The translations under genes and the position numbers were made by a program. This document shows positions 37,994 through 64,000 of a stretch of 64,000 nucleotides of DNA, piece after piece. The DNA is from a virus (Duplodnaviria > Caudoviricetes), in IMG/VR virus record IMGVR_UViG_3300008114_000194, positions 11,622 to 75,621 of that record. One strand, 5' to 3'. Numbering within the stretch: the first letter of the stretch is position 1; the number at the start of each line of letters is the position of its first letter. The notes beneath the pieces are model-generated. The model worked only from the letters and a program-made list of their open reading frames with translations, was not told where the DNA came from and searched no databases.

Positions 37994-38000
37994 ATAAATA
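37994..38000 (+). promoter_or_regulatory. Late promoter ATAAATA
   Basis: Follows the terminator, 20 nt before ATG 38021. Confidence 0.7.
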
Positions 38001-38020
38001 ACTTAAACGTGTAAAATCAT

Positions 38021-38956
38021 ATGGCCCAAAAATCTTTGTTTACTCCCCAAGGACTAAGTGTTGGCAATCTGTTTAGTCCCACTGATGTCATACTAGCCAA
38101 CGCTGATATTACCGCTGGTAATGCTGTCAGCGCCAATTTCTTTATTGGTAACGGTGCTTTATTAACTGGTATATCGGTAGGCTCTGACTATGGCAATGCC
38201 AATGTAGCTAACTATCTAGCCAGCAATGCCAATGTGACCATCACGGTCGGCGTAGCCAATATCACTACTCAGGGCAACATCACAGCAGGTTACTTTTTAG
38301 GTAATGCTACCTTTGCAGAAGGAGTCAGCAACACTTATTTTGGCAACGTAGCGCCCAGTTCACCAGCACAGGGCGACATCTGGATTGACAGTGACACAGG
38401 TATACAGACCATTTATTTTGTAGATGCCAACGGTGGCCAGTGGGCCGAGATGGAAGCCAGCAAGGCATTTTCAGTCAATAATTCCAGCACTGTGGGTGGT
38501 GCTAATCTTACCTACAGCAACACAGCACCTGCTAATGCAGTTGTGGGCGATATGTGGATCACGGCCAATACTGCCAAACAATTTGTTTATTTCAATGATG
38601 GAACCAGCAATATCTGGGCCGAGATGGAAGCTTATCAGGCCTTTTCCAGCACAGGTACAACTTATGGAAATGCAAACTTAGTATCCTATGGCGAACAGGG
38701 CTGGGCAGGCAACATCATACCATCTACCAGTAACATATACAATCTTGGCAGCGCCAACTATCAATGGAACAGTTTGTATGTGGCCAGCAATACAATTTAC
38801 TTTAATAATGTACCAGTGAGCGTATCCAATTCTGGACTGACTGTAAATGGCAGCCCCACTGTCACTAGTAATGCAGCAAGATATGTGTTTGTATCTACGT
38901 CGGCTCCCACATCCGGCCAAGGTAATGTGGGCGATATCTGGTATCAGACATACTGA
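38021..38956 (+). CDS. Short fibre/adaptor protein with two GD(I/M)W...WAEMEA modules and a C-terminal SAPTSG..GDIWYQ motif
   Basis: Motifs read in the translation; N-terminus paralogous to 35109 (LNSPGGFSVGE vs LFTPQGLSVGN). Confidence 0.75.
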   Translation: MAQKSLFTPQGLSVGNLFSPTDVILANADITAGNAVSANFFIGNGALLTGISVGSDYGNANVANYLASNANVTITVGVANITTQGNITAGYFLGNATFAEGVSNTYFGNVAPSSPAQGDIWIDSDTGIQTIYFVDANGGQWAEMEASKAFSVNNSSTVGGANLTYSNTAPANAVVGDMWITANTAKQFVYFNDGTSNIWAEMEAYQAFSSTGTTYGNANLVSYGEQGWAGNIIPSTSNIYNLGSANYQWNSLYVASNTIYFNNVPVSVSNSGLTVNGSPTVTSNAARYVFVSTSAPTSGQGNVGDIWYQTY

Positions 38957-40629
38957 TGAAAGAATACATAGTCACTCTTAACAAAGATGCCGACCTTGAT
39001 GCTTTCTGGGCAGAAATAGAAAACAGCGGCAACCTTGCACCCACGGTACCGGTTAGACCTGTGGCCATAGTCAACAACCGTGATCCCATGCCTAGACTGT
39101 GTCACTATCTCTTGACTGATCAAGAAGCCGACACACTGCGCCAGGATCCCAGAGTAGCAGGAGTAGAAATTCCCCCGGAACATAATCCTGACATCATTCT
39201 AAGTCGTAACCGCACAGTGCAGTTCAGAGACAATTTTAACAAAACCAGTCTCAGCATCAGCGACTATGTCAATTGGGGATTGGTTCGCAACAGTTCTTTG
39301 ACCAATTCTTATGGTAACAGTCTAATATCTAACATTGGATATGGCTACTTTGTGGATGGCACAGGAGTAGACATGGTCATAGTAGACAGCGGTATACAGG
39401 CCAATCATCCGGAATTCCGTTATGTTGGTAATTTGACATCGCGAGTACAACAGATTGATTGGTTTACGGCATCGGGTGTTACAGGAACCATGCCCGGAAA
39501 CTTTTACACAGACTACAGTGGTCACGGCACACACGTGGCTGGCATAGCAGCGGGACAGACCTATGGTTGGGCTAAAAATGCTGCTGTGTATGCTATCAAA
39601 TTGGAAGGGCTACAAGGTGCCACAGATCCTGGCTCGGGCTTGACCATGGATCAGACATTTGACGTGCTGGTAGGATGGCATGAACGCAAGATGAATCCAG
39701 CCAGCGGTTACTATACCGGACGACCCACAGTGGTCAACATGAGTTTTTCCTACGGCGCCGGTATAGTCAATAACTTTTATTTACAGGGCGGCAATTACCG
39801 TGGCAACAACTGGAGCACAGCCAATGTATGGAGCAACAATACCTATGGCCTAACTTGGTACAGTGGCACTACTTGTCCTGTACGATTGACCAGTGTAGAT
39901 GACGGAGTTGAAACACTGGTAGATGCTGGCATCAATGTCTGTATCGCTGCTGGCAATGAAAACCTAAAGATCGATGTACCCGGTGGTCTGGACTACAACA
40001 ATTACTTGACAACAGTACAATCTGTATCGGGTATTGGCAATCTATTTTACTATCAACGCGGTGCCAGTCCCTATTCCGGCAATGCCTTGATAGTGGGAGC
40101 CATGGACTCTACAGTGTATTCTTCTACTACAGATCAAAAAGCCACTTATTCCATGGCAGGTCCAGGTGTGGACATTTTTGCTGCTGGCAGCAATGTCATG
40201 AGCGCCTGCAGTAACGTGGATGACATAGGTGGAGGACAGACATACTACTGGAACAGCAACTATAAACAGATCAATATTGGTGGCACCTCCATGGCCAGCC
40301 CGCAGGTAGCAGGCATAGTATCCTTTTATCTTGAACAAAATCCCAATGCCAGTCCTTCTACGGTCAAAGACTGGACTGTGAACAACGGTACTTACACCAT
40401 TTACAAACCCTCGGACGCCGAGGACAACGACTACAACAACAATCGCAGCCAGTGGGGAGGTAATGCGCCAGTGGCATTTTCCAGCAGTCAGGGAGCATTA
40501 GTGTCCACTGTGCAAAATAATTGGGCAATAGCCAACACAGTTTATATCAAAACTGATAGTAGTTTTTGGACCATGGTGCAAAATATCTACACTAAAACCG
40601 ATGCCAACACCTGGCAAAAGGTATATTAG
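38956..40629 (+). CDS. Intact S8 subtilisin-like serine protease, probably virion-associated
   Basis: Prodomain; VIVDSG (Asp), GHGTHVAG (His), AAGN, GTSMASPQVAG (Ser); C-terminal W...VYIK...W..V..IY.K...W tail. Confidence 0.92.
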   Translation: MKEYIVTLNKDADLDAFWAEIENSGNLAPTVPVRPVAIVNNRDPMPRLCHYLLTDQEADTLRQDPRVAGVEIPPEHNPDIILSRNRTVQFRDNFNKTSLSISDYVNWGLVRNSSLTNSYGNSLISNIGYGYFVDGTGVDMVIVDSGIQANHPEFRYVGNLTSRVQQIDWFTASGVTGTMPGNFYTDYSGHGTHVAGIAAGQTYGWAKNAAVYAIKLEGLQGATDPGSGLTMDQTFDVLVGWHERKMNPASGYYTGRPTVVNMSFSYGAGIVNNFYLQGGNYRGNNWSTANVWSNNTYGLTWYSGTTCPVRLTSVDDGVETLVDAGINVCIAAGNENLKIDVPGGLDYNNYLTTVQSVSGIGNLFYYQRGASPYSGNALIVGAMDSTVYSSTTDQKATYSMAGPGVDIFAAGSNVMSACSNVDDIGGGQTYYWNSNYKQINIGGTSMASPQVAGIVSFYLEQNPNASPSTVKDWTVNNGTYTIYKPSDAEDNDYNNNRSQWGGNAPVAFSSSQGALVSTVQNNWAIANTVYIKTDSSFWTMVQNIYTKTDANTWQKVY

Positions 40630-40637
40630 AGCTATGA

Positions 40638-40644
40638 ATAAATA
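40638..40644 (+). promoter_or_regulatory. Late promoter ATAAATA
   Basis: 23 nt before ATG 40668. Confidence 0.7.
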
Positions 40645-40667
40645 TTAGAAACAGAGACAGAGTCATC

Positions 40668-43600
40668 ATGGCATTGAATTTTCCTTCCTCACCCAGCATT
40701 AATGATACCTATACCTACGGTGATAAAACCTGGGTCTGGAATGGTCGTTTCTGGCAGATACAAGCAGCAGGCGCTATCAATGATATCGCTATTGGTAATA
40801 TCACTCCCAACACAGGCGCTTTTACCACCCTAACTGCCACAGGTAACATCACTGCTCAGGGCAATGTCCAAGGGCAGTACATACTGGGCAATGGAGCATT
40901 CTTAACTGGCATTTCCGGCAGCAGCACTTATGGCAACGCCAATGTGGCCAATTATCTGCCCAATTATGGCGGAAACATTTTGACCAATGTAGTATCGGGC
41001 AACTTTTATGCCAACAGCATACTACCCTGGAGTCCCACAGCAGGACTAATCAATGATGCAGTTGACATTGGAAACAGTACTCTTTACTTTAAAGATATCT
41101 ATGTTGGCAATGTAATAACTCCTGCAGGTGATCAAGGCAATGCCACACAGATACAGCCAGCATCGGGCGCAGGACAAAGCGGTGTTGCATTCGTAGATGC
41201 CATCACTGGCTCAGCCTCAGATGTATCAGCCGGAACACTTTATGTAGAATCTATCGATGCCATTGGTAATGTCACTGTAGATACATTTGTAGAAGCCAAC
41301 GAAATCATTGCCTTGTCCAATGTATCAGGCACAGGTGGCAACTTTTCTAGCAACGTCTCCGCCAGTTACTTTTTAGGTAACGGTGCTTTCTTAACTGGTA
41401 TTGCTGGTGGATACAGCAACGCCAACGTAGCCAACTATCTGCCCAATTATCAAGGACTGGTCAGCAATATAGATTTCCGCAGCACCAGTCCAGCAGCAGT
41501 GGCCATGGTGGTCACAGACAGACCCATTACCATTGGTGGTAATACATTAAGTTACGTTACCATACCCAATGATGGCAATGCCAATAGTGTAGCAGCCGAG
41601 TTGACCAATCATGGTCTGGGCAATGTGCTGATCAGTTCTGGGCCCGACGATCACGAGTGGATTTTTGACAACACAGGAAACTTAACAGCACCTGGAAATA
41701 TACAAGCAGGCAATGCTGTCAGCGCCAACTATTTCTTGGGCAATGGCGCCTTACTAACTGGTATCACAACAAACTATTCCAATGCCAATGTGGCCAACTA
41801 CTTGGCTACCTACAACGGTAATGCGCTATTCAGCAATGTCACTGTATCACAAGATGCTGTAATTTTAGGCAATCTTCGCGTTGAGGGTAATACCACCTAT
41901 ATCAATGTCACTGATCTTGTGATAGAAGACAAAGATATCATAGTGGCTGCCAATGCCAATGCTACCCTGTCAGATCTCAACGGAGCAGGTCTCCAGATAG
42001 GTAACAGAACAGCCGGTGGCAACATCACCTTCTTCTACAACAGCATCAGCAATGTCATGTCTCTAAGCCATGGCGCTAACATTGCTAATATTTTAAATGT
42101 AGCAGGCAATGTCAATGCTACTGGCAACGTCACCGGCAATTATATACTGGGCAATGGAGCACTGCTAACTGGATTGGCCACATATGGCAACAGTCACTGC
42201 CAACTGGTTCGTTGGCAACATAAACACTACCAATAGCTTGGTCACATCAGGCAATGTCACAGCCAACAACTTTATTGGATCAGATCCCAATGTAAATCTC
42301 ATAGCCGGTAGTTATACATGGGCATTCAATGATGCTGGCAATTTGGTATTGCCTAGCAATACTTTTGCAGTCAACTATGCAAATGGTGTACAAGTAAGCC
42401 TTGGTGGATCATACAGTAATGCAGATGTAGCCAATTATTTGGCCAGCAACGCCAATGTTACTATCACTGTTGGTGTTAGTAATATCACTACCCAGGGCAA
42501 TATCTCTGGCAATTACTTTATAGGTAACGGCGCATTATTGACAGGTGTAGTAACCAGCAGTTACTCAAATGCCAATGTTGCCAATTACCTGCCCACTTAC
42601 TCAGGCAACATCACAGCAGGTAATATCGCAGTCACAGGTAATGTCACAGCCAACTGGTTCGTGGGTAATATCAACACTACCAATAGTTTGGTAACTTCGG
42701 GTAATATTACAGCCAACAACTTTATAGGATCAGATCCCAATGTTGGTTTGGTAGCCGGCAATTACACTTGGTTATTTGATAACGCTGGCAATGTCACACT
42801 GCCCAGCAATACTTTTGCAGTTAATTACGCCAATGGAACAGCAGTAAGTCTAGGCGGAACTTACAGCAACGCCGATGTAGCCAATTACTTGCCTACCTAT
42901 AACGGCAATGCCTTGTTCAGCAACATCACTGTGTCACGAGATGCTGTGATATTGGGCAATCTTCGTGTAGAAGGTAACACCACATATATCAATGTATCAG
43001 ATCTAATCGTAGAAGACAAGGATATCATAGTAGCGGCCAACGCCAATGCTACCATGACCGATCTCAACGGAGCAGGTCTGCAGATAGGTAACAGATCAGC
43101 TGGTGGCAACATCACATTCTTCTACAACAGCACCAGCAATGTCATGACATTAAGCCACGGTGCTAACATCGCCAACGTGCTGAATGTCGCTGGTAATATC
43201 ACTGCCACAGGTAATGTCAACACTGGTAATTTAGTAGGATCAGGCACCAATGTAGAAATCGTAGGTGGATCCTATACTTGGACTTTCAACGGTTCGGGCA
43301 ACTTAGTCCTTCCGGGCAACTCATTTGCTGTAAACTATGCCAACGGCACACAGGTAGCATTGGCTGGATCTTACAGCAATACCAACGTCAAAGCATACCT
43401 AGGCAACTTCGATGGTAATATAATCCCCAGCGCCAATGTCACTTACGACTTGGGTAGCAACAGCAATCGTTGGAACGACTTATATCTCAACAACAGCACT
43501 ATCTATATTGGTGCACAGGAAATCACTGCCAATGCTGATTCCACAATCTTTTCTGGTAATATCTCAGTAGGTAATTTAGTTGGTACTGGTGATAATGTAG

Positions 43601-46600
43601 ACATCAAAGCCGGTGCTTACACCTGGAGATTTGACAATGCTGGCAATCTTACACTGCCTGCCAATACATCGGCTATCAATTATGCCAATGGTGCAACAGT
43701 TCCCGTGGGCTATGGCAATGCCAGCGTGGCCGCATACCTGGGCAGTAATGCTAATCTAACTATCCTAAGTCAAGGCAACATCACTGGCAATTACTTTATT
43801 GGTAATGGCGCATTACTCACAGGTGTTGTAACATCCAGTTACTCCAACGCCAATGTGGCCAACTACTTGCCTACATACACAGGCAACATCGCAGCAGGCA
43901 ATGTCACAGCCACTGGCAATGTACAGGGTGCTTACATACTGGGCAATGGTGCATTATTAACCGGATTGCCAGCCACATACGGCAACAGCAACGTAGCAGC
44001 TTATCTAGCCAGCAACGCCAATGTGACATTGGCTATCGGCACAGGTAATATAACAACACAGGGCAATTTAGCTGTTGGTAATTTGATTGGTTCTGGAGAC
44101 AATGTAGATCTCAAAGCTGGGTCATATACCTGGCGTTTTGACAGCACTGGCAATCTAACACTGCCGGCCAATTCCACAGCCATATATTATGCCAACGGCA
44201 CACAAGTTCCAGTAGGTTATGGTAATGCCAACGTCGCAACTTATTTGGCCAGCAATTCAGCAGTCACTATATTAACCACTGCCAACATAACTACTGCTGC
44301 CAATATCTCCGGTGCCTATCTCTTAGGCAATGGCGCACTGTTGACAGGTCTGCCTGCTACTTACGGTAACAGCAACGTCGCTGCTTATCTTGCTGCCTAC
44401 AACGGCAACGCACTGTTCAGCAACATCACAGTATCGCAAGATGCTGTTGTTCTGGGCAATCTTCGTGTTGAAGGTAATACCACTTATATCAACGTATCAG
44501 ATCTCATAGTCGAAGACAAAGATATCATCGTAGCAGCCAATGCTTCGGCAACCATGACCGATCTCAATGGCGCTGGCCTACAGATAGGCAACAGAACAGC
44601 TGGTGGCAACATCACGTTCTTCTATAACAGCACCAGTAACGTCATGTCGTTAAGTCATGGCGCTAATATCGCCAATGTGCTGAATGTCTCTGGTAATGTA
44701 TCTGCTACAGGAAATGTTTCAGGCAATTGGTTTGTAGGTAATATCAACACTACTAACAGTCTAGTTACATCCGGTAATGTCACAGCCAACAACTTTTTAG
44801 GTTCTGGAAGTAATGTAACATTAGAATCAGACAGTTACTCCTGGATATTTGATAACGCAGGTAATCTTACTTTACCAGGTAATACATTTGCTGTAAACTA
44901 CGCCAATGGCACACAAATATCTTTGGGCGGTTCATACAGCAATTCGATTGTGGCCAATTATCTAGCCAGTAATGCCAATCTAACAATATCAGTTGGTACA
45001 GGCAATATCACCACACAGGGCAACATCACAGGCAATTACTTTATAGGTAATGGCGCACTGTTGACAGGCGTGGTAACCTCCAGTTACAGCAATGCCAATG
45101 TAGCCAACTACTTGCCTACCTATACTGGCAATATCAGCGCAGGAAATATTACCGCTACTGGTAATGTTACTGCCAATGGTTTCATAGGTTCTAATGTTAA
45201 TACTCGTATTATTTCCAGCAGTTACATCTGGACATTTAACAACACTGGTAACTTGGTACTTCCAGGCAATACATTTGGCGTCACATACGCCAACGGCACC
45301 ACAGTTAGTCTAGGTGGAACTTACAGTAATGCAGATGTAGCAAATTATCTGCCCACTTATACAGGTAACATTACTGCGGGCAACGTAATCGCTACTGGTA
45401 ATGTTATTGGTAACTGGTTCGTAGGCAATGTCAACACTACCAATAGTCTAGTAACTTCGGGTAATGTCACAGCCAATAACTTCGTTGGTTCGGGCAACAA
45501 TGTTACATTAGCATCTGACAGTTATACCTGGACCTTTGACAACACAGGTAACTTTATACTGCCCGGCAACAATACTGCTATCTATTATGCCAATGGCACA
45601 CAAGTACCTGTGGGATATGGCAATGCAAATGTAGCCACTTATCTTGCCAGTAATGCCAATGTCACTGTTTCGGTAGGCACAGGCAACATCACCACACAAG
45701 GTAATATCTCTGGCAACTACTTTATTGGTAATGGCGCACTGCTGACTGGCATAGTAACTTCAAGTTACTCAAATGCCAACGTAGCCAATTATCTAGCCAG
45801 CAATGCTAATCTTACTGTGTCTGTGGGCACAGGCAATATCACCACACAGGGCAACATTAACTCTCGAGCACTGTATTTGGGATCACAACGGGACGTGATT
45901 TACCAAGTGTCGGGCAACATCACATTAGCTGGTGGAGCACTGGATAATAATGCCAATATCAGCATCAGAGCCAACACGGCCATGGCCAACAGCTATGTGC
46001 TGTCATTGCCATCTGATACCCCCAATGCAGGTGATGTATTATCAGTTAAAAACTTTGGATCATGGAGCGCAGTTGGAAATGTAGCCAATCTGATATGGTC
46101 TGCTCCTGCCAGCACCTATGGCAATACAAATGTAGCTGCATATCTACAGGCATATAACGGCAATGCCTTGTTTAGTAATGTCACTGTATCTAGAGATGTA
46201 TTGATATTGGGCAACTTACGTGTTGAAGGCAATACCACCGAGATCAATGTTTCTAATATATTCTTAGAAGATAAAGATATTATAGTAGCTGCCAATGCTT
46301 CGGCCACCCTGTCAGATCTCAACGGAGCAGGTCTGCAGATAGGTAATAGAACAGCAGGCGGCAACGTCACGTTCTTCTACAACAGCATCAGCAATGTCAT
46401 GTCTCTAAGCCATGGCGCTAACATAGCCAATGTGTTGAACGTCGATGGCAACATTGTTGCCACTGGCAATGTCACCGGCAATTATATACTGGGCAATGGA
46501 GCACTGCTAACTGGATTGGCCACATATGGCAACAGCAACGTAGCAGCTTATCTAGCCAGCAATGCCAACGTCACGGTGTCTGTTGGCACAGGCAATATCA

Positions 46601-49600
46601 CAACACAGGGCAATCTAACAGCAGGTAACTTTATAGGCTCTGGAAGTAATGTAAGATTAGAATCAGAAAATTATGCCTGGCAATTTGATAACGCAGGTAA
46701 CCTTACCCTACCAGGTAATACATTTTCTGTAAACTACGCCAATGGCGCACAGGTCAGCCTGGGTGGATCATACAGCAACGCAGATGTGGCCAACTACTTG
46801 GCTAGCAATGCCAATCTTACCATATCAGTGGGCACAGGCAACATTACCACACAAGGCAACGTCTCTGGCAACTACTTTATTGGCAACGGAGCATTACTCA
46901 CAGGTATTGCCACCGGTAGTTATAGTAATGCTAATGTGGCCAATTATCTAGCCAGCAACGCAAATCTTACCATTTCTGTCGGTACAGGCAACATCACCAC
47001 ACAGGGCAATTTAGCAGTTGGAAACTTGATTGGCTCAGGTGACAACGTAGAAATCACAGCAGGTGTGTATACCTGGACCTTGGATAACACTGGTAATTTG
47101 ACATTACCGGGCAACACCACTGCTATCAACTATGCCAATGGCACACCTGTTCCTGTAGGCTATGGCAATTCCAATGTGGCCGCATATCTGGCTAGTAACG
47201 CCAACGTCACTGTGTCTGTGGGCACAGGCAACATTACCACGCAGGGCAATGTCAGTGGCAACTACTTTATTGGTAACGGCGCACTCTTGACAGGAGTTGT
47301 CACATCCAGTTATAGCAATGCCAATGTGGCCAACTATCTGCCCACCTACTCAGGCAATGTTTCGGCTGGCAACTTGAATCTCACCGGCAATATTGTTGAC
47401 ACTGGTGCTATATTTGTAATTACAGGCGCCAGTGGCAATGTAGTTCTAGCACCCAACGGCACCAGCAGAATAATTGCCACAACTTCGGGCGCTAATGTTA
47501 TTGGTAATTTAGATGTTGCAGGCAATGTCAATGCCAATGGTGCTACACTTACAGGAAACTTATCAGTTGGCAACTTGATCGGCTCAGGTGATAATGTAGA
47601 GATCACTGCAGGTGCGTATACGTGGACGTTGGATAACACGGGTAATTTAACGCTGCCAGGCAACAGCACTGCCATATACTATGCCAATGGCACACAAGTG
47701 CCAGTGGGCTATGGCAATGCCAATGTAGCCACTTATCTAGCCAGCAATGCCGCAGTCACTATTTTAACCACTGCAAATATCACCACTGCTGCCAACATCT
47801 CTGGTGCTTATATCCTAGGTAATGGCGCATTCCTAAGCGGATTACCTGCCACATATAGCAACAGCAATGTGGCAGCATACCTCGCTGCATACAATGGCAA
47901 TGCATTATTCAGCAATATCACTGTATCACAAGATGCTGTGATATTGGGTAATTTGCGTGTAGAGGGCAATACCACTTATATCAATGTAAGTGATCTAATT
48001 GTAGAAGACAAAGACATTATCGTGGCTGCCAATGCTTCGGCCACCTTGACCGATCTCAACGGCGCAGGTCTCCAAATCGGCAATAGAACCGCCGGCGGCA
48101 ACATCACCTTCTTCTACAACTCAACCAGCAATGTCATGTCTCTAAGCCATGGCGCTAATATTGCTAATATTTTAAATGTAGCAGGCAATGTCACTGCTAC
48201 AGGCAATGTCAACACTGGTAACTTGGTAGGTTCTGGTACAAACGTAGAAATAGTCAGCGGAGCATATACTTGGCTATTTGATGGTGCTGGCAATTTAACT
48301 GGTACTGGCAATGTGTCTGCTGGTAACTTTGTTGGAACATCTGGCAATACATCTATCGTCACTGCTGGTTATACTTGGACATTCAACGATGCCGGTAATT
48401 TGGTCTTGCCCGGCAATGTCTTTGGCGTAACCTATGCCAACGGAGTACAAGTAAGTTTAGGCGGTTCATACAGCAACGCAGATGTGGCCAACTATTTGGC
48501 CAGCAATGCCAACGTCACAGTTTTGGTAGGCACAGGCAACATCACCACACAGGGCAACATCTCTGGCAACTACTTTATTGGTAACGGCGCATTACTCACA
48601 GGCGTGGTAACATCCAGTTACTCAAATGCCAATGTGGCCAATTATCTGCCCACTTACACAGGCAACATCACAGCAGGCAACATTACCACCACTGGCAATG
48701 TCATTGGGAATTGGTTTGTTGGCAATGTCAGCACTACCAACAGTTTGGTCACATCAGGTAACGTCACTGCCAACAACTTCGTGGGTTCAAGTGGCAACAC
48801 ATCAATAGTCACTGCTGGTTACACCTGGGTATTTAACGACACAGGTAATTTTGTATTGCCTGGCAACAGTTTCTCTGTAAATTATGCCAATGGCGCACAG
48901 GTCAGCCTGGGTGGATCATACAGCAATGCCGATGTCAAGGCATACCTGGGCAACTTCGATGGCAACATCATACCCAGTGCTAACGTAACATACAATCTGG
49001 GTAGCAATAGTAATCGCTGGAATGATTTATATCTCAACAACAGTACCATTTATATTGGCGCACAAGAAATCACCGCCAATGCTGATGCTACCATATTCTC
49101 GGGCAATATTTCAGCCAACTACATATTGGGCAATGGTGCGCTACTCACTGGAGTAGCTTCGTCCTACGGCAACGCCAACGTAGCAGACTATCTAGCCAGC
49201 AACGCTAATATAAACCTTGCGATTGGCACAGGTAATATCACCACTGCAGGCAACATCAGCGTGGGATCTATACAAGGTGCCAATGCCAATACAACCATCG
49301 TGGCCAACGTCTATAGTTGGACATTTGATGATACTGGCAATTTAACACTGCCGGGCAACTCTACCGCAATATATTTGGCCAACGGTACACAAGTGCCCCT
49401 GGGCTATAACAATGCCAGTGTTGCTGATTACATGGGCAGTAATGCCAATGTAACACTGAGCATTGGCACAGGCAACATTACCACACAGGGTAATATCAAA
49501 TCTCGCACATTGTATCTGGGATCACATCAGGATGTTTCCTATCAGGCATACGGTAATATCACCCTGTCGGGTGGTTCCGCAGACAACAATTCCAATGTAT

Positions 49601-51420: not shown

Positions 51421-51428
51421 GGTCAGTC

Positions 51429-52225: not shown

Positions 52226-52245
52226 TTAATTAAACGAACATTCAA

Positions 52246-53061: not shown

Positions 53062-53081
53062 CAGATGAACATGAATTTTAA

Positions 53082-53088
53082 CTAAATA
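53082..53088 (+). promoter_or_regulatory. Late promoter CTAAATA
   Basis: 19 nt before ATG 53108. Confidence 0.7.
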
Positions 53089-53107
53089 TTATTAGAAGAA
53101 GAAAACC

Positions 53108-54391: not shown

Positions 54392-57300
54392 TGTCTCTGC
54401 TGCAACTGGGTGTCAGCACCGGTGGAACCAGCAGTAGCAGCAGCGGAGGTGGTGGAATCACTCCCACGCCACCCAGTGCCATCTACGGTGAAGCCAACTA
54501 CAACAACGATTTCAACTATACCAGTCTGCAGATAGCAGGCACAGGCAGCAACAACGCCAACAACACCAGTTTCATAGATTCCAGCACTAACAATTTCACT
54601 GTTACTCCCGCAGGTGATGTCACGCAAGGTACTACATCACCTTTTGTGTATGGCACCGGCACAGACCCTGCCACAGGCTACTTCTCAGGGTACTTTGATG
54701 GTACAGGTGATTACCTAACCATGGCCGACAATGCTGCGTTTGCCTTGGGAACCAACAACTTTACCATTGAGGCCTGGGTGCTGCCACAGAACTCAGCGAC
54801 TAATAGTTTTTGGTTTAACCAATGGGAAAATTCTGCGTCTTCTGACACAAACTCAAGTTTTGTGTTGTCTATCACATCGGGCAAATTCCAAGGTGCTGTG
54901 GCCTACGGCGGATCAACATCACAGGTAGACCTGCCGGGTAGATCTACGGTATCAAACAATCAATGGTATCACGTGGCATTGGTGCGAAACGGCAGCAGTT
55001 TGACATTGTATGTCAATGGCCAATCAGAAAATACCAGCACCACCCTTGGCGGATCCTCAGTCAACAACAGCAATCTAGCACTTTTTATTGGCACACGCCG
55101 AGATGGCACACGGCCATTTCAGGGGTATATATCAAATGCTAGACTTGTCAATGGAACTGCACTGTATACCTCAAACTTTACAGTATCCACTACCCCGCTT
55201 ACCGCGGTTACCAACACGCAACTGCTGACCTGCCAGAGCAGCCAATTCATCGACAACTCCACTAACGTTTTTGCCATTACTTCAGTAGGCCAGGCACAAC
55301 CAACACCTGTAAATCCCTTTGGCATGACTGCTTGGTCCGGATACTTCGATGGCACTGGAGATTACTTGACTGTGCCAGATAATGCGGCTTTTACATTTGG
55401 CTCAGGTGATTTTACTATTGAAACTTGGGTATATCCTAATGCATTATCTACCACTGTGATGGCAGGAAAATATACTTCATCACCAAACACAGGTTGGAGT
55501 TTTGAACTTAATTCCACCGGCTATCCCTTGATTTGGCTAGTAGGCACCACAGTGGCTACATCCTCTGTTGCTGTCAGCGTAGCAAAATGGAATCACATTG
55601 CAGTAACAAGAAGTGGAACTGCTCTTAAAATTTTTGTAAATGGGGTTCAGACTGCATCAGCTACAAATAGCACTAACATCACTGCGTCAGGACTTGCACT
55701 TTATATAAATTCTTCCGTGGGCGCTCCTGGTACCATTGGATTAAACGGTTTGTATTCGAACCTTAGAATCGTCAAGGGCACCGCAGTCTATACCTCTGAC
55801 TTCACGCCGCCCACCGCGCCGCTCACAGCCATCTCTGGAACATCACTGCTGACCTGCCAGTCCAGCACTTTTATCGACAACTCTACCAATGCATTCACAA
55901 TAACAGCCAATGGCAATTCCTACACAGGCACACTCAACAATCCATTTGGCAATCCCGTTAATTATGCCACACCTCCCACAGCTGCTTACTCGGCTTACTT
56001 TGATGGCACCAACGACTATGTGCTGGTAGCTGCCAATACCAATATCAACAATCTAGGACTGGAAGATTTCACCATAGAATGCTGGGCATTCCTAAACAGC
56101 AGCAGTACCGACGCCACAATAATAGCACAAAACTCAAGTTGGGCCACACAAAACAACTATACCATAGAAGTCAGAACTGGCGGCGTTTTCCGCGCATTCA
56201 TAGGAGACAGCACCGCCATTGATATCAATCCGGGTATCAACTCTTTTCCTTTGAAACAATGGAATCACGTGGCTGTGGTCAGACGTGTGGGCACTACCAC
56301 TGCTTATATCAACGGGCGCTCCGTGGGATCCAGCACCACTGCTGTCAACCTCACACGAAATCCTGTGACCAGTATCGGCGCTTTCAGCACCAGTGGCACA
56401 GCCTTGAGCAATTACTGGAAAGGTTATATCAGCAATTTCAGGATAGTGCGCGGTACAGCAGTGTATACTGATAATTTTACACCGCCTACCGCACCATTGA
56501 CTACCATACCCGGTACAGTGCTGTTGACCTGCCAATCTACCAACTTCAATGATGCCAGCATTATTAGAAATGTGATCACGCCCACCAACGGTGCAGCCAT
56601 TGATTCATTTACACCTTTTGGTTTGCCTACCTCTGTGATTGCACCAGCCACAGTGGGCGGCTCGGGATACTTTGACGGCAGCACTGATGTGTTAAGTGTG
56701 GCATCCAATGCTGCATTTGCATTTGGCACCGGCGATTTTACCCTGGAAGCATATGTATATCCATTGTCTTTGACCAACGATACTTTGATCTGCGGTGTTG
56801 ATGCCACCAATGGTGCGCTACTGGGATACAGCACAACAACAGTTTGGCTTGGTGCTCGTAACACAGCATATGATTTGACTGCAACCTATACCTTGCCATT
56901 GAACACCTGGACACATCTTGCTGTGTCAAGACAAGGCACAACAGCAAGAATTTTTGCCAATGGCGTGCAGATTGCCACCGGCACTGCCACTAGGAATTAT
57001 CCCCAAGGTCAATTTACTGTTGGCAACTATGTCACAGCCAATATTGGTGTGGTTGGGTATCTGTCCAGTGTACGAGCAGTCAAAGGCACAGCAGTATATA
57101 CCACTGCATTTACTCCTCTCACAGCACCTGTCACAGCCATAGCCAATACCAGTCTATTGTTGAACTTTGCCAACGGAGCCATCGCAGATGCCACGGGAAA
57201 AAACAACATACAGCTCAAAGGCAACACTGTCATATCCACGGTCAAGGCCAAGTATGGATCAGGCAGTGTTTACTTTGACGGATCAGGTGACTACCTGCAG

Positions 57301-59859
57301 ATCCCTGCTGCGCCTGATCTGTATCTCAGTCCTGCTGGCACCACTGCCAGCAATCTTGATTTTACCATTGAATTATGGTTCAATGCCAATTCAGTAGCCA
57401 CTGCTTTCCAGACCATGTGGTTGCGTAGATCCAGCCAGAATCCTCGTGGTGTTGCCATTTACCTAGCCACCAGCACACTTGATGTTTACATAGGAACCAC
57501 TGCTTGGCAAGTACAAATCACCAGTGCTGCGGGATCCATCGTGGCCAATACTTGGAATCACTGCGCTGTGACCCGAGCCGGCACAGAATATCGTGTGTTT
57601 TTAAATGGTGTGTTGGTGGGCACGTCTACTCCCACAGCGTTTGTGATATCAGATGACACCAGTCCTATCTGGATTGGAAACAACGGTACAGAAGGCACCC
57701 AATATCCTTTTGCAGGTTATATGCAGGACATAAGATTTACCGTGGGCAAGTCGAGATATGCCTATAGTTTTCCAGTGCCGTCTGCACTGTTTACCAACTA
57801 CTATACCACTGCTGCCGCACCCACTACAGATACCTACGGCAGCTATACCACAGCACTGTTGCCTGGCACAGGAACCAATCTCAGCAAAAACAATGCTGTC
57901 ACAGACGCCAGCACCAATGCTTATGCTGTCAGTACCGGAGCCGGCACCGTTACCCTAGGCACGCTGAGTCCTTATTCGGAAAATGGTTGGAGTGCATTTT
58001 TTGACGGATCCGGTGACTACTATACTGTTCCTTACTCCAGCACCACTAACATACTCAGCGGCGACTTCACTGTGGAAGGCTGGGTCAATGCCACACTGAT
58101 TGGCACAGGCAGCAGACAGATTGGAGGTCAGTGGCAGCAAACCGCAGGACAGGGCGGCTGGCAATTGGGCATTGACACCAGCGGCTTTATCAGCGTGGCC
58201 TTTGGCGCAGCAACAGAAGCCGCAGGCATCATAACCAGTTCTGTGGCCATTGCGGTCAACACTTGGTATCACATAGCCCTGGTGAGAAACGGCAGCGTGT
58301 TCACGCTTTACATCAACGGTGTCAGTCGCGGAACCTATACCAGCGCTGCCACTAGAGCCGCACTCACATCCATACCCACTACCTTTGGTAACTGGCTCAG
58401 CAGTTCGGGCACATTTCCTGCCTCGGGATCAGCAGACTTCCGTGGCTATCTGGCCGACTATCGCATAGTCAAAGGCACCGCTGTATATACCAGTAATTTT
58501 ACACCGCCCACTACACCATTGACTGCTATCTCAGGCACTGGTCTGCTGTGTTTTGCCAGTCCCTATGCTGTGGATCTATCAGGTAACAACAATACATTTA
58601 CCATCACTGGATCCACTAGAACCACACCGCAGACTCCTTATCCTCCTACATCTGCTTACTCTGCTGCTGTGAATGGCAGCAGCATGTTCTTTGATGGCAG
58701 CACTTATCTCCAACTGTCATCGGGAATAGCTATACCAGCCACAGGAACATTTACCATTGAATGTTGGTTATATATCACAGCCAGCGCCACTCAAATTTTA
58801 GTAAGTCAATATACCAGCAGCGATCCAAATCGCAGCACATTTATCATTGATAATGTTTCGGGATATAAATTAAGTTTTAACCCCGGCGGTATAGTAGGCT
58901 CTACCGTGGTTCCTTTGCAACAGTGGAATCACTGTGCAGTTACCAGAGACAGCAGTAATACTTTAAGGATATTCCTTAATGGCAAAGTTGATGCAACATC
59001 TGCTAATTATACTTCTACCATACAGCAGACACAAACAAGAATTTCAGGATTTGCCAATTCACCTGCTTATCTGTTGAATGATGCTTACATGGCCGGCCTG
59101 CGCATAACCAATACCGCGGTCTATACCGCAGCATTTACTCCACCCACCGCACCGCCCACGGCCATTGCAGGTACCACGCTGCTGTTGAATTTCACTGACA
59201 ACACTGGCCCAAGAGATGCCACTGGACGTAGCATAGTTTATTCATCAGGTGATGCCAGCATCAGTACCGCTGTCACAGATCCCTGGAGCAACAACAATGG
59301 TGTGTTGTATTTTCCCGGCACAACGGACGCCATGTTACTCAACAGCATAGGGTCCGATGCCAACAACGTCAGTCCATTATACGCTCCGCAGGGCGATTTT
59401 ACCTGGGAAGCTTGGATTTATCCCACTGCTGTGGGCACAGCACACATAGTGACCTGGGGATACAACAATACCGGCACCAGTTACGCTGGTATATATCTAG
59501 CCTTTTTTGCCAATCTACAGTGTACTTTACAGGTCAGCAGCACTGGCTCCAGCAACATAGCCGATCTGCGTGCGGGAATATTTACACTCAATCGTTGGCA
59601 GCACGTGGCAGTGTCACGTTTGGGCAGTAATCTTAGACTATTCATCGACGGTGCCTTGCTGAATGAAGCCAGCACCACTGCTGATCTCTGGGCCGGCACA
59701 GCCACTACTCCGGACTATGGATCATTTACCCTGGGCCAGCGCAATGTCAGCGGTCCACAGAATTTTAGTGGTTACATGAGCAATGTGAGATTTACCCGAA
59801 ATCGCGCTAGATATTGGAGCCCATTTACTCCACCCTCTGCGCCTTTTCCCTTGTACTAA
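54391..59859 (+). CDS. Multi-LamG (concanavalin A-like) adhesin-like protein, ~8 domains (start revised to 54391)
   Basis: AGGAG RBS and TAATG overlap; repeated S.YFDG.GDYL...DFTIE.W...W.HVAV.R.G...F.NG...GYISN.R.VKG.A.YT. Confidence 0.9.
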   Translation: MSLLQLGVSTGGTSSSSSGGGGITPTPPSAIYGEANYNNDFNYTSLQIAGTGSNNANNTSFIDSSTNNFTVTPAGDVTQGTTSPFVYGTGTDPATGYFSGYFDGTGDYLTMADNAAFALGTNNFTIEAWVLPQNSATNSFWFNQWENSASSDTNSSFVLSITSGKFQGAVAYGGSTSQVDLPGRSTVSNNQWYHVALVRNGSSLTLYVNGQSENTSTTLGGSSVNNSNLALFIGTRRDGTRPFQGYISNARLVNGTALYTSNFTVSTTPLTAVTNTQLLTCQSSQFIDNSTNVFAITSVGQAQPTPVNPFGMTAWSGYFDGTGDYLTVPDNAAFTFGSGDFTIETWVYPNALSTTVMAGKYTSSPNTGWSFELNSTGYPLIWLVGTTVATSSVAVSVAKWNHIAVTRSGTALKIFVNGVQTASATNSTNITASGLALYINSSVGAPGTIGLNGLYSNLRIVKGTAVYTSDFTPPTAPLTAISGTSLLTCQSSTFIDNSTNAFTITANGNSYTGTLNNPFGNPVNYATPPTAAYSAYFDGTNDYVLVAANTNINNLGLEDFTIECWAFLNSSSTDATIIAQNSSWATQNNYTIEVRTGGVFRAFIGDSTAIDINPGINSFPLKQWNHVAVVRRVGTTTAYINGRSVGSSTTAVNLTRNPVTSIGAFSTSGTALSNYWKGYISNFRIVRGTAVYTDNFTPPTAPLTTIPGTVLLTCQSTNFNDASIIRNVITPTNGAAIDSFTPFGLPTSVIAPATVGGSGYFDGSTDVLSVASNAAFAFGTGDFTLEAYVYPLSLTNDTLICGVDATNGALLGYSTTTVWLGARNTAYDLTATYTLPLNTWTHLAVSRQGTTARIFANGVQIATGTATRNYPQGQFTVGNYVTANIGVVGYLSSVRAVKGTAVYTTAFTPLTAPVTAIANTSLLLNFANGAIADATGKNNIQLKGNTVISTVKAKYGSGSVYFDGSGDYLQIPAAPDLYLSPAGTTASNLDFTIELWFNANSVATAFQTMWLRRSSQNPRGVAIYLATSTLDVYIGTTAWQVQITSAAGSIVANTWNHCAVTRAGTEYRVFLNGVLVGTSTPTAFVISDDTSPIWIGNNGTEGTQYPFAGYMQDIRFTVGKSRYAYSFPVPSALFTNYYTTAAAPTTDTYGSYTTALLPGTGTNLSKNNAVTDASTNAYAVSTGAGTVTLGTLSPYSENGWSAFFDGSGDYYTVPYSSTTNILSGDFTVEGWVNATLIGTGSRQIGGQWQQTAGQGGWQLGIDTSGFISVAFGAATEAAGIITSSVAIAVNTWYHIALVRNGSVFTLYINGVSRGTYTSAATRAALTSIPTTFGNWLSSSGTFPASGSADFRGYLADYRIVKGTAVYTSNFTPPTTPLTAISGTGLLCFASPYAVDLSGNNNTFTITGSTRTTPQTPYPPTSAYSAAVNGSSMFFDGSTYLQLSSGIAIPATGTFTIECWLYITASATQILVSQYTSSDPNRSTFIIDNVSGYKLSFNPGGIVGSTVVPLQQWNHCAVTRDSSNTLRIFLNGKVDATSANYTSTIQQTQTRISGFANSPAYLLNDAYMAGLRITNTAVYTAAFTPPTAPPTAIAGTTLLLNFTDNTGPRDATGRSIVYSSGDASISTAVTDPWSNNNGVLYFPGTTDAMLLNSIGSDANNVSPLYAPQGDFTWEAWIYPTAVGTAHIVTWGYNNTGTSYAGIYLAFFANLQCTLQVSSTGSSNIADLRAGIFTLNRWQHVAVSRLGSNLRLFIDGALLNEASTTADLWAGTATTPDYGSFTLGQRNVSGPQNFSGYMSNVRFTRNRARYWSPFTPPSAPFPLY

Positions 59860-59868
59860 ATTTTGCAA

Positions 59869-59875
59869 ATAAATA
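59869..59875 (+). promoter_or_regulatory. Late promoter ATAAATA
   Basis: 27 nt before GTG 59903. Confidence 0.65.
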
Positions 59876-59902
59876 TATTGATACAACTGAAAGCGAACGA
59901 TT

Positions 59903-61738
59903 GTGGCTTTAAATTTTCCCTCAAATCCCAGTGTCAACGACACTTATTCGTTTAACAACAAAACGTGGCTGTACAACGGCCAGGGCTGGATTTTGGCCAC
60001 GTCGGGATCCATCAACGCCATACCCATTGGCAACGTCACGCCTGCTTCGGGCAACTTCACCACTGTTGGCGCCACTGGCAACATAACTACAGATTTATAT
60101 TTCATAGGCAACGGCAGCCAGTTGTCAGGCATCACTGCCAGCGGCATGCTCACTGTCAGCAACGCAGCGCCTGTGGGTGCTGCCCAAGGCGATGTTTGGA
60201 TTTCAGCCAATACTGGTGTACAGTATGTGTACTTTACCAGCGGAGGTAATAGTCAGTGGGCAGAGATGGAAGCTGCCACCAGCATTGATCTAGGATCAGA
60301 AGTGGACCTTACAGCAGTGTCCAGCAACATCATTCCTACAGCTAACATCACATATGACATAGGTAACACCAGTTATAGATTCCGCGACATATATCTAGCC
60401 AACAGCACAATCTATCTAGGCTCGGCCACAATTTCTGCGACAGCTGGTAACTTACTGTTACCAGCCAATGTATCTATTGGCAACAGTAGCATAGTTGAAA
60501 GCGGAGGTGTGCTGGGATTTCCCGCAGGTACCACCATTGGTGGATCTTCACCTGAAGTACCCAAGATAAGCAACGTACAAATCACCGACAGCAGTTATAC
60601 TGTGTTAGATGACACTGCTATCAACGTTGACGGCGGCTACTTTATAGTCAATGGTTCGGGATTTGTTTCGGGAGCCACAGTCATAGTAGAAGACACCATT
60701 GCATCATCTGTGTCTTTTATCAATTCCACACTGCTGAGATGCCAAATTGGAGCCAAAGCAGCATCGTCGTACAATATATATGTGGTTAATCCAGATGGAG
60801 GCACAGCCATTAGACCATTGGGGTTAACTTTTTCAGCATTTCCTTCTTGGGTCACGGGCAGTACCTTGGCCAATGCCACTCAGAACACAGCGTTTTCCTA
60901 TAGTCTGACAGCCACCGATGCTGTCTCATATGCGCTATCACCGGGAAATTCGGTGCCCAATGGATCGGCTTTGTACAGCAATGGACAGTTTTCTGGCAAT
61001 GTGGCAGTAAATGCTAACACAGCCTATTCTTTTACTGTGATAGCCACTGATGCACAAGCACAAGATTCTCCTCGCACTTTTAGTTTTAATATCATATACA
61101 TAGCCAAACCACAGACAGTGGAATACCTAGTGGTTGCTGGTGGCGGTGGTGGCGGTGGTGGTATCGCGGGAACTTCTGAAGCAGGAGGCGGTGGTGCAGG
61201 TGGATATATAGCAACTACCGCCAACATCACAGAAGGCGTAACCTATACAGTGGTCGTGGGTGGCGGTGGTGGTGGTGGCCCAGGACCCGGCACTGGCGCA
61301 GCTGGCGGCAATTCTTCGGCCTTTGGCACTACTACTGTAGGCGGTGGCGGCGGGGCTGGATACACTGCCACTGCTGGATCTGGCGGTTCCGGTGGTGGTT
61401 CATATCCAACCAGCGGCCGTGGTGGCAATGGCAATGTTTGGCTCAACGGAACTTTTTATGCAGGTGGAGGTGGTACCACCGGAACCGCTGGTGGTTCGGG
61501 AGGTGGTGGCACCGGCAAACCTGGACCAGGTGCTGGCGTGACCAACACAGGTGGTGGTGGAGGTGCAGGCATCTCTACAAGCAGCCAGCCAGGTGGATCT
61601 GGTGGTTCAGGCGTGGTAATATTGAGATACGAAGATTATCTAGATCCTGCGGCCAATACCAATGGCACTGTTTCTGTGACCACAGCCAATGGATATCGAT
61701 ACTACACATTTACCAGTTCAGGTAATATCCGTTGGTAA
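59903..61738 (+). CDS. Fibre with MALNFP and WAEMEA modules, IPT/TIG and Ig-like domains, and a C-terminal glycine-rich domain
   Basis: GSGFVSGATV..VSFINSTLL..YNIYVVNPDG (IPT); EYLVVAGGGGGG. Confidence 0.85.
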   Translation: MALNFPSNPSVNDTYSFNNKTWLYNGQGWILATSGSINAIPIGNVTPASGNFTTVGATGNITTDLYFIGNGSQLSGITASGMLTVSNAAPVGAAQGDVWISANTGVQYVYFTSGGNSQWAEMEAATSIDLGSEVDLTAVSSNIIPTANITYDIGNTSYRFRDIYLANSTIYLGSATISATAGNLLLPANVSIGNSSIVESGGVLGFPAGTTIGGSSPEVPKISNVQITDSSYTVLDDTAINVDGGYFIVNGSGFVSGATVIVEDTIASSVSFINSTLLRCQIGAKAASSYNIYVVNPDGGTAIRPLGLTFSAFPSWVTGSTLANATQNTAFSYSLTATDAVSYALSPGNSVPNGSALYSNGQFSGNVAVNANTAYSFTVIATDAQAQDSPRTFSFNIIYIAKPQTVEYLVVAGGGGGGGGIAGTSEAGGGGAGGYIATTANITEGVTYTVVVGGGGGGGPGPGTGAAGGNSSAFGTTTVGGGGGAGYTATAGSGGSGGGSYPTSGRGGNGNVWLNGTFYAGGGGTTGTAGGSGGGGTGKPGPGAGVTNTGGGGGAGISTSSQPGGSGGSGVVILRYEDYLDPAANTNGTVSVTTANGYRYYTFTSSGNIRW

Positions 61739-61757
61739 TAACTGATAAATTTATATT

Positions 61758-63371
61758 ATGCCTATAATTAGTTTCCCTTCTGCTCCTAATTTAAACGACA
61801 CATATTCATTCAACGGCAAGACTTGGATCTACAACGGCGAAGGTTGGATGTTGTCTGCAGCAGGCAGTATCAACGGCATACCCATAGGCAATGTCACTCC
61901 TGCCACAGGTAATTTCACCACTGTAGGCGCTACTGGCAACATCACAACAGATCAGTATTTCATAGGTAATGGCAGTCAGTTAACTGGTATCACCGCCAGT
62001 GGCATGCTCACTGTCAGCAATATCGCTCCCATATCACCCTCAGCAGGAGACGTGTGGATCGCTGCCAATACAGGCGCCCAGTATGTGTATTTCACTTCAG
62101 GCGGCAATAGTCAGTGGGCTGAAATGGAAGCAGATACCAGTATCAGTATTACCACCAGCAGCGGCGCTAATATAGACTTAACTGCAGTCGCCAGTAACAT
62201 CATTCCCTCGGCCAACATCACATATGACATAGGTAATACCAGCAATAGATTCCGTGACATCTACTTGGCTAACAGCACTATCTATCTTGGTGATGCAGAA
62301 ATTTCTGCCAACGGATCAAATGTAGTACTAGCATCTGCGGTCATAACATCTGCTGTCATAGCATCGGCTACTCTGGGTAACATAAACAATGACAGCACCG
62401 GATACATGAGTTTGCCAGTGGGTAACACAGCACAACGACCTGTGGCTCCCACTGCTGGAATGATTAGATTTAACACAACTACCAACAGCCCCGAGTGGTA
62501 TGATCCCATAGGCAATCAATGGCTAAACTTGTCTCAAGGTCCCAACTACAATGTTGAATACCTAGTGATAGCCGGCGGTGGTGGAGGTGGAGGCGCACGT
62601 GGAGGTGGAGGTGGAGCAGGGGGCTATCGGACCGATACTGGAATTTCTGTCAGTGTTGGAACTAATTACACAGTGACAGTCGGTGCAGGCGGCACAGCAG
62701 GTCCAGGATCTGTTCAAGGTACTTCTGGTGGTAATTCTGTGTTCAGTTCCATTACATCCATTGGTGGTGGTGCTGGTGGAACCGGGTTTGCATCCAGTAA
62801 TAATAATGGTTTGTCAGGAGGATCCGGCGGTGGTGGCGCAGCATTATCAGCGCCCACAGGAGGCACTGGTGGTTCTGCTACCCCGGGTCAAGGTTTTGCT
62901 GGCGCGTCTTCACTAACAGGAGGTGAAGGGTACTCAGGTGGAGGAGGCGGTGGCTCTTCTTCTGTGGGAACTACCGGATCTGTTGGAAATGCGCCCGCTG
63001 GCAATGGTGGAGCTGGCACAGCATCAAGTATCACGGGTACTAGTGTGACTTATGCAGGTGGTGGTGGAGGTGGTAACTATTCCGCTGCACCCAGCCCTGC
63101 AAGGGTAGGCGGAACAGGCGGCTCAGGCGGTGGAGGCAACGGTGGGGCTTGGGGTGATGGTCCCGGGGTGCAAGTCAGTGCCACTGCTGGTACTACCAAT
63201 AGAGGTAGCGGTGGAGGTGGAGGTGGTAACACACAAGGTGGCGCAGCCGGAGGTTCAGGCATAGTTATCATTAGATATCTAGGCGCACAGCGCGGCTCAG
63301 GTGGCACAGTAACTTCTGCTGATGGCTATACTATACATACATTCACTAGTTCAGGAACTTATACAGCGTAA
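61758..63371 (+). CDS. Fibre with FPSAP/WAEMEA modules and a C-terminal glycine-rich domain
   Basis: MSLPVGNTAQRP...GMIRFNTTT..PEWY; EYLVIAGGGGGG; YTIHTFTSSG. Confidence 0.85.
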   Translation: MPIISFPSAPNLNDTYSFNGKTWIYNGEGWMLSAAGSINGIPIGNVTPATGNFTTVGATGNITTDQYFIGNGSQLTGITASGMLTVSNIAPISPSAGDVWIAANTGAQYVYFTSGGNSQWAEMEADTSISITTSSGANIDLTAVASNIIPSANITYDIGNTSNRFRDIYLANSTIYLGDAEISANGSNVVLASAVITSAVIASATLGNINNDSTGYMSLPVGNTAQRPVAPTAGMIRFNTTTNSPEWYDPIGNQWLNLSQGPNYNVEYLVIAGGGGGGGARGGGGGAGGYRTDTGISVSVGTNYTVTVGAGGTAGPGSVQGTSGGNSVFSSITSIGGGAGGTGFASSNNNGLSGGSGGGGAALSAPTGGTGGSATPGQGFAGASSLTGGEGYSGGGGGGSSSVGTTGSVGNAPAGNGGAGTASSITGTSVTYAGGGGGGNYSAAPSPARVGGTGGSGGGGNGGAWGDGPGVQVSATAGTTNRGSGGGGGGNTQGGAAGGSGIVIIRYLGAQRGSGGTVTSADGYTIHTFTSSGTYTA

Positions 63372-63380
63372 AGATAAATC

Positions 63381-64000
63381 ATGCCCGTAATTAGTTTCCC
63401 ATCTGCTCCCAGCGTCAACGACACATACTCATTCAACGGCAAGACCTGGATTTATACAGGTCAGGCCTGGAATCTAGCAACTTCAGGATCAATCAATGAC
63501 ATACCCATTGGCAATGTCACTCCTGCCACAGGCAACTTCACCACAGTAGGTGCCACAGGCAATATCACTAGTTCTGCTAATATTTCCGCATCATATTTTC
63601 TTGGCAATGGTAGTCAATTGACAGGCATTATAGCAGGTGGTACTCTCACTGTCAGTAATGTTGCGCCAATATCGCCCTCAGCAGGAGACGTGTGGATAGC
63701 AGCCAACACAGGCGTGCAGTTTGTGTATTTCTCATCAGGTGGCAACAGTCAGTGGGCTGAGATGGAATCAGATACCAGTATCAGTATTACCAGCACCAGT
63801 GGTGCCAACATCGATCTTACCGCAGTAGCCAGTGACATCATTCCTGCTGCCAACATCACATATGACATAGGCAATACCAGCAACAGATTCCGTGATATCT
63901 ATCTAGCCAACAGCACTATCTATTTAGGTGATGCTACAATTTCAGCCAATGGTTCAAATGTAGTCATGGGCTCGGCTATCATAGGAAATATCACCAATGA
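63381..64000 (+). CDS. Partial paralogue of 61758-63371, running off the right edge
   Basis: Manual translation MPVISFPSAPSVNDTYSFNGKTWIYTGQAW...QWAEMESDTSISIT...FRDIYLANSTIYLGDA; DNA nearly identical to 61758 onward. Confidence 0.85.
   Translation, partial: MPVISFPSAPSVNDTYSFNGKTWIYTGQAWNLATSGSINDIPIGNVTPATGNFTTVGATGNITSSANISASYFLGNGSQLTGIIAGGTLTVSNVAPISPSAGDVWIAANTGVQFVYFSSGGNSQWAEMESDTSISITSTSGANIDLTAVASDIIPAANITYDIGNTSNRFRDIYLANSTIYLGDATISANGSNVVMGSAIIGNITN

Follow-up and report, generated by a model that had tools for sequence, protein, structure and literature searches.

A small, predicted beta-structured module recurs at the starts and probable junctions of phage fibre proteins

A 64,000-nucleotide stretch of viral DNA (Duplodnaviria; Caudoviricetes; positions 11,622 to 75,621 of IMG/VR record IMGVR_UViG_3300008114_000194), here called the window, carries from 35 kb to its end large fibre-like genes, all on one strand. 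Two short motifs recur in the proteins they encode. The first, at the N-terminus, is called the plug; the second, marked by the residues WAEM and located further along the chain, is called the socket. Both names come from an original prediction, made by a model from the DNA sequence alone, that plugs bind the sockets of other fibres and so build a branched array of adhesins. We find instead that plug and socket, judged by sequence comparison and structure prediction, look like length variants of one aromatic-rich, three-stranded beta-meander of about 30-35 residues. The explanation that we favour, and consider probable, is a shared repeat module that serves both as an N-terminal cap or anchor and as in-line knots in a multi-fibre cluster.

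The useful part of this result is the module itself, which stands at the starts and junctions of fibre proteins. About 2,000 protein clusters, among them fibres of cultured marine and freshwater cyanophages, match a profile of the N-terminal domain. We know of no recognisable homologues, in cyanomyoviruses, of the proteins that attach the fibres of T4 (T4 gp9-gp12). A defined N-terminal tag and an internal knot are therefore concrete targets for asking how cyanomyovirus fibres are mounted. Searches of the literature for the motif, or for what it does in the fibres of cyanophages, turned up no description of the module. What we report is thus a widespread module for which no published account was found, in a locus that is itself of a familiar kind.

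Two motifs and their predicted fold

A six-frame scan of the window with the expression P..P..[ND]D.[YWF]...[KRQT].[WYF].[WYF].G..W gave exactly five matches, the five plug starts counted in the original prediction. Each lies at residue 6 or 7 of an open reading frame (ORF), namely those starting at 40668, 53108, 59903, 61758 and 63381, and all five begin M(ALN/P.IS)FP..P..NDTY....KTW.(W/Y).G..W. The string WAEM occurs exactly seven times, again as predicted: the ORF at 38021 has two copies (residues 141 and 199), that at 42184 has one (residue 2773, nucleotide about 50500), and those at 53108, 59903, 61758 and 63381 have one apiece. The surrounding 45 or so residues are alike in all seven copies, with 14 invariant columns in the alignment and the consensus ..AP....GD.WI...T..Q..YF......WAEM.. 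in the window. Block-shuffling the window 100 times yielded on average 0.1 copies of WAEM and 0.05 copies of the plug core, where the window itself has seven and five; chance is therefore excluded for both motifs. Proteins with a plug only, proteins with a socket only and variable spacing between the two confirm that these are real, separable modules. They sit on fibres with different tips, and Pfam bears out the payloads that had been proposed: glycine-rich regions, IPT/TIG with He_PIG, a partner with eight LamG domains and an S8 protease partner.

Are plug and socket one module or two? By eye, both follow one pattern: P-x-x-P-x-x-(N/G)-D-x-(Y/W) comes first, and after it a hairpin, the sequence aromatic-x-aromatic, another turn and W. 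This pattern fits within about 25-35 residues and is present in all 12 copies in the window; sockets have 2 and 3-4 more residues than plugs in the two turns. For the first 154 residues of the 61758 protein, AlphaFold2 predicts a three-stranded antiparallel meander for each module at a pLDDT of about 80-85 (strands at residues 15-18, 21-25 and 30-32 in the plug and at 99-102, 108-114 and 117-124 in the socket), joined by a poorly defined linker. For P0201, a relative of 196 residues with one plug and three sockets, it predicts four like units at pLDDT 80-93. How the units pack is not predicted with confidence in single-chain models that hold both modules (pTM 0.33 and 0.39).

Sequence comparison points the same way. 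Aligning 36 plugs with 43 sockets from relatives, hhalign paired the whole module over 28 columns (P 2.6e-4, probability 42%). In BLASTP, a P0201 socket falls on a window plug inside an alignment of E 6e-15. Cyanophages provide intermediates: S-N03 has forms between plug and socket, and in S-CRM01 an N-terminal module is matched by both profiles. Its gene starts MALNFPNSPSDGDTW...YVYV....W, and in the 82-residue ORF (136-384 of our fragment L020, 22285-22533 of the record) the module has a plug start and socket loop lengths. The predicted folds, the profile alignment, the BLASTP result and the intermediate forms together argue for one module family.

Positions, arrays and competing explanations

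We sorted 213 relatives with hidden Markov models (HMMs) of plug and socket. The plug is present in 132 of them and starts within the first 10 residues in every case (132/132). Sockets occur in 134 of the 213, with 1-14 copies per protein, and are always internal. Where they stand in tandem, the period is about 48-58 residues, about 52. One relative, P0079, has 14 tandem sockets and fifteen other proteins have 3-7 copies; in some proteins, P0201 among them, a socket array merely opens with the plug. We read these arrays and the N-terminal plug as a shaft repeat with a special first unit. The 38021 protein, with a spacing of 58 residues between its two sockets, is a small example of such an array.

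On the explanation that we favour, the short variant would be a first unit only, and at the N-terminus it would cap the trimer, anchor it to the tail or an adaptor, or do both. The N-terminus of a fibre is normally its virion-proximal end, which makes this role the most likely one for the plug. The WAEM variant would be an in-line knot that can be stacked in tandem as a shaft. Single WAEM knots would stand at junctions between a conserved N-terminal region and exchangeable distal parts. In support, N-terminal stretches of about 135 residues, through WAEME, are 73-82% identical among the four small fibres, and the 53108 fibre diverges from the others right after WAEMEAATS. The window would encode at least five fibres, one of about 3600 residues and four small, with one attachment region and different tips: glycine-rich, IPT/Ig, or a common tip domain with a partner gene, LamG or glycine-rich, just downstream. 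An extra fibre with two knots, the 38021 protein, would be coupled to the S8 protease. PHROG matches in the tail category give the window proteins their tail context.

The high N-terminal identity of the four small fibres, whose distal parts differ, would also be found if paralogues mixed through their common region of about 130 residues and so presented several tips at one site. There is a precedent for such co-assembly. In phiKZ, common N-terminal segments of gp131, gp133, gp134 and gp135 form one hetero-hexameric anchor (PMC13250141), and the base of the phiKZ tail fibres, with its paralogous fibres and their common N-terminal anchoring region, resembles what we propose here. The phiKZ anchor, however, is a six-helix bundle. 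No helical bundle appears in the window fibres, whose N-terminal region is predicted by AlphaFold2 to be beta-structured with a low-confidence linker, and we think mixing of this kind unlikely.

The strict division between N-terminal plugs and internal sockets also suits the alternative in which plugs dock onto the WAEM modules of other fibres, forming a chained or branched multi-adhesin array with the giant fibre, the 38021 protein or multi-socket proteins as racks. Branching is known in jumbo phages that have many receptor-binding proteins. The layout that best suits a rack with plugs is found on the metagenome contig L022 (10001-17112), where one protein has 14 tandem sockets and plug-starting genes of 194 and 180 residues lie shortly downstream, the first directly after the 14-socket gene. 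Docking would further account for the strong conservation of QWAEME and for the presence of both modules in all five complete phage genomes that we searched and in two of three metagenome fragments; and the copy of the module in phiKZ gp184 plugs a cavity in another protein (PMC11297242). Two variants of one repeat, however, would be expected to occur together in any case. Plug and socket, being apparently of one fold and family, are not complementary shapes; arrays of 4-14 tandem sockets look like shaft repeats; and in P0201 plug and sockets directly follow one another within a single chain, modelled as beads without confident packing (pTM 0.39). We therefore retain the modules and the multi-fibre cluster from the original prediction and set aside its docking code, in which plug and socket were complementary partners, given their like fold and the long tandem arrays. 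Docking of this sort is improbable in our judgement. Nor do we give much chance to its broader form, in which the short module would be a universal docking tag for the internal WAEM or QWV modules of other fibres by homotypic pairing of beta-meanders. Were that true, cultured cyanomyoviruses too would mount many exchangeable tips on multi-socket racks, and by a branching system unrelated to the gp10-like one.

Branched receptor-binding systems such as CBA120 TSP1-4, G7C gp63.1/gp66 and those of RaK2 and phiKp24 are built on docking domains like T4 gp10. Their fibre or spike genes are clustered, as in the window, and likewise keep an N-terminal region in common while the distal parts vary. Unlike a gp10-like docking domain, the candidate socket here would be a repeat homologous to the plug. 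No Pfam or PHROG profile of the gp10-like (XD) domain matched any protein scanned, in keeping with the earlier proposal of a separate module family.

Tandem arrays of aromatic beta-hairpin units on host-recognition proteins also recall cell-wall-binding repeat proteins. The hairpins might bind glycans or the cell surface weakly along the fibre, so that they add avidity and have no part in assembly. This is quite unlikely: known families of binding repeats were not matched in Pfam, the N-terminal copy sits at the end expected to face the virion, and the conserved aromatics fit a small hydrophobic core equally well.

What do solved structures say? We searched the Protein Data Bank (PDB) with Foldseek (E <= 0.001), VIA-align, phmmer and sequence profiles. 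Foldseek returned nothing at this threshold, and sequence searches of the PDB with the socket profile, the plug profile and the relative P0127 returned nothing relevant. With a single plug sequence as query, phmmer gave only phiKZ gp184 (E 0.052). The best PDB match of the predicted plug is a 34-residue piece of the same protein (8Y6V chain I, residues 69-102), which superposes at a root-mean-square deviation (rmsd) of 1.0-1.6 Å over 28-33 residues with 36-43% identity (VIA-align Z 4.2). The piece has the same motif (LPTDPEPGDTYHVNGVDWIYQEDGGW) and is the only solved copy of the module. In phiKZ this beta-rich fragment fills, as a monomer, a hollow between gp86 and the capsid hexamer (PMC11297242).

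The only solved homologue of the plug thus lies in a capsid. Could the plug insert into capsid or neck proteins and decorate the head, as the gp184 module does in phiKZ? That no baseplate gene was identified in the window would fit. The gp184 module is, however, an internal segment of a protein that is found at the inner face of the capsid and undergoes proteolytic processing (PMC11297242), whereas the plug is an N-terminal fibre module. Relatives are annotated tail-fibre genes, which adjoin baseplate genes in S-N03, and the PHROG matches are in the tail category. We regard a head or neck function as very improbable.

The socket unit has neighbours of its own. It matches the trimerisation domains of collagen XV/XVIII (multiplexin) with the weak scores of Z 3.6-5.2 (rmsd 3.0-3.5 Å over 44-51 residues), the neck segment of CBA120 TSP3 at Z 3.9-4.3, with the necks of other tailspikes similar, and the N-terminal beta-prism of Mtd at a VIA-align Z of 2.5. 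An HMM of both modules combined aligns with residues 461-479 of Wac (T4 fibritin), whose C-terminal 27 residues are the foldon, at -0.7 bits. The foldon has a spacing, P..P..G(D/Q).Y......W, like that of the module; on this non-significant score we do not adopt homology to it and keep the likeness in spacing as a lead. Multiplexin domains, foldon and Mtd prism are all tiny beta units that sit at the end of a trimeric fibre or at a junction in one, as we propose for the module, and in some relatives the modules flank collagen repeats, which again recalls multiplexin. These neighbours are leads, not proof, and their low scores are as expected for such small units.

Several points weigh against our preferred explanation of one repeat with cap and knot roles. 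The hhalign probability is just 42%, and with the window copies alone ten columns aligned, which is not significant. No segment in any of the 213 relatives was hit by both profiles, so that within the window lineage plugs and sockets form separate classes, perhaps with specialised functions. The QWAEME signature, charges included, is invariant across otherwise divergent proteins, which points to some constraint other than folding, perhaps a partner that they have in common. The solved copy in gp184, a monomeric piece wedged in another protein's cavity, shows docking behaviour. Every fold match falls below Z 6. Finally, trimer formation, anchoring to the virion and the role at junctions are features that we infer.

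Distribution and origin of the module

A profile of the N-terminal 135 residues matched 1,993 representative clusters at E <= 0.001 in a collection of 1.84 billion proteins. A profile search of whole records showed both modules, with E values down to 1e-14, in each of the five complete genomes, those of P-SSM2, S-N03, S-CRM01, Vibrio phage D69 and the freshwater actinophage DSL-LC01. Plug and socket profiles match the cyanophage genomes 4-11 times each. The third metagenome fragment, which is 17% complete, holds a plug and no socket.

The clusters of T4-like cyanophages of the Kyanoviridae (P-SSM2 PSSM2_024-028, S-N03 gp007-gp015, S-CRM01 g16-g26) resemble the window in that several consecutive genes start M..(N/D/S)FP.SP..(N/G)(D/Q).Y...W.W.G..W and in that their proteins have internal GDLWW...LYVYY.D..S.QWV modules. 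In P-SSM2 a plug opens three neighbouring genes, and GDLWW...YVYY...QWV modules are found in others; S-N03 has a run of seven genes with the start M(A/T)(I/L/V)(T/N/D)FP.SP. It is the annotated tail-fibre or tail-fibre-like genes of these three phages that carry both modules. The window differs from them in several respects. Its lineage is marked by the QWAEME signature. In cyanophage proteins the plug is succeeded by collagen repeats, which are rare in the window lineage, and the fibre of about 3600 residues and the LamG, glycine-rich and protease partners are found here. In DSL-LC01, a 183-residue protein (L021 54-605, minus strand) consists of plug, collagen repeats, degenerate socket and collagen repeats; in some lineages, then, the modules flank triple-helix segments. 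We rejected adjacency to collagen as a general rule, since collagen-like runs occur in just 4 of the 213 window-lineage proteins.

No Pfam model matched the modules when the window proteins and their N-terminal domains were searched. For the two models of the GDLWW-type segment, PF18050 (Cyclophil_like2) and PF23887 (Phage_Gene47), these sequences gave no match even at E 10; the more canonical relatives P0127, P0201 and P0184 score above the PF18050/PF23887 cut-offs at profile positions 47-95.

Many freshwater metagenome contigs encode a protein identical to that of 53108. Searches for a close cultured phage found none, megablast giving no match and tblastn matching the tip domain only. A related viral contig of 170 kb was judged about half complete and relatives lie on contigs of 220-356 kb, so the phage is probably jumbo-sized. 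The source is likely an uncultured freshwater jumbo phage. A search for gp23 gave no match in four related fragments, and none in the control genomes either.

Layout of the fibre cluster

The locus is most likely a multi-fibre host-recognition cluster with a common N-terminal region and exchangeable tips, an ordinary kind of locus; its genes from 38021 to the window end lie on the plus strand. The giant fibre is encoded by two ORFs, 40668..42236 for the N-terminal 522 residues (plug at 40668-40799) and 42184..51420 for the other 3078 (one WAEM module at 50389-50529), which overlap in different frames with a break near 42184-42236. The first had been taken for a gene of its own. It does start with a plug, and in relatives it is fused with the second: contig L007, 93% identical, has one open frame spanning both, and JGI contigs call the giant fibre gene at 3543-3603 residues. 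Given this single frame, the giant fibre of about 3600 residues carries both plug and socket. The break may stem from misassembly, from a genuine split of the gene or from programmed frameshifting.

Two glycine-rich genes follow. The first, called as 51429..52037 (Pfam Gly_rich_2), is frameshifted over 51429-52240 relative to a 276-residue form in relatives, residues 1-169 of which tblastn places in one frame and residues 161-276 in another. The second, 52246..53061, encodes a protein of 271 residues (Gly_rich_2, E 1.1e-18). The 53108..54391 gene encodes a 427-residue fibre (plug at 53108-53239, WAEM module at 53351-53491). It is followed by 54391..59859, which encodes 1822 residues with eight LamG-type lectin domains (Pfam Laminin_G_3, E 1.1e-140, 8 stretches); this protein has neither plug nor socket and is called as a gene in relatives too. 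The giant fibre (51120-51417) and the 53108 fibre (54090-54388) end in a common C-terminal tip domain, and each is followed by a partner gene, glycine-rich after the giant fibre and LamG after 53108. The same domain is C-terminal in minor tail proteins of Gordonia phages, a Limnohabitans phage protein and proteins of Brevundimonas jumbo phages.

Three further small fibre genes close the window. The product of 59903..61738 has 611 residues (plug at 59903-60034, WAEM module at 60146-60286), with IPT/TIG, then a He_PIG Ig domain, then Gly_rich_2 distal to the WAEM module. That of 61758..63371 has 537 residues (plug at 61758-61892, WAEM module at 62004-62144, then Gly_rich_2), and 63381..63998 is truncated by the window end (plug at 63381-63515, WAEM module at 63642-63782). 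Matches above the Pfam gathering cut-off were Gly_rich_2 in 51429, 52246, 59903 and 61758, TIG/He_PIG, Laminin_G_3 and Peptidase_S8.

Upstream of the giant fibre, 38021..38956 encodes a fibre-like protein of 311 residues without a plug (PHROG 9729, tail fiber, E 7.8e-9), whose two tandem WAEM modules lie at 38330-38470 and 38504-38644. It ends, at about 38903-38953, in a truncated module, APTSGQGNVGDIWYQTY and a stop (first strand only, GDIWYQTY). Its stop codon is overlapped by the start of the S8 subtilase gene, 38956..40629 (Pfam Peptidase_S8, E 3.1e-27; phrog_9158, E 1e-69). We rejected a module split between this end and the protease start (..EYIVTL...FWAEIE) and joined by strand complementation: the protease N-terminus fits, weakly, an I9 propeptide (Inhibitor_I9 aligned in register, E 0.13), and we treat its WAEI as a coincidence. 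At the other end of the protease, two VYxKTDxxxWxxV hairpins (40540-40629) recall the latter half of the module found in the fibres. Another protease-like protein (phrog_9158) is encoded at 20201-22246.

Two minor observations concern the gene starts. The motif (A/T)ATAAATA or CTAAATA, which is like T4-type late promoters, stands 10-35 nucleotides upstream of fibre gene starts (38000-38020, 40640-40667, 53075-53107, 59870-59902, 61740-61757 and 63372-63380); CTAAATA is also found upstream of 18292 and 22499. Other N-terminal classes occur in the cluster: 18292-19992 and 22499-25192 start ..G(T).PN..(D)G(T)GD..R..F...N.N(F/W), and 35109-37922 and 38021-38956 have the common start MA.K.L..P.G.SVG. 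These two classes may be further types of attachment end.

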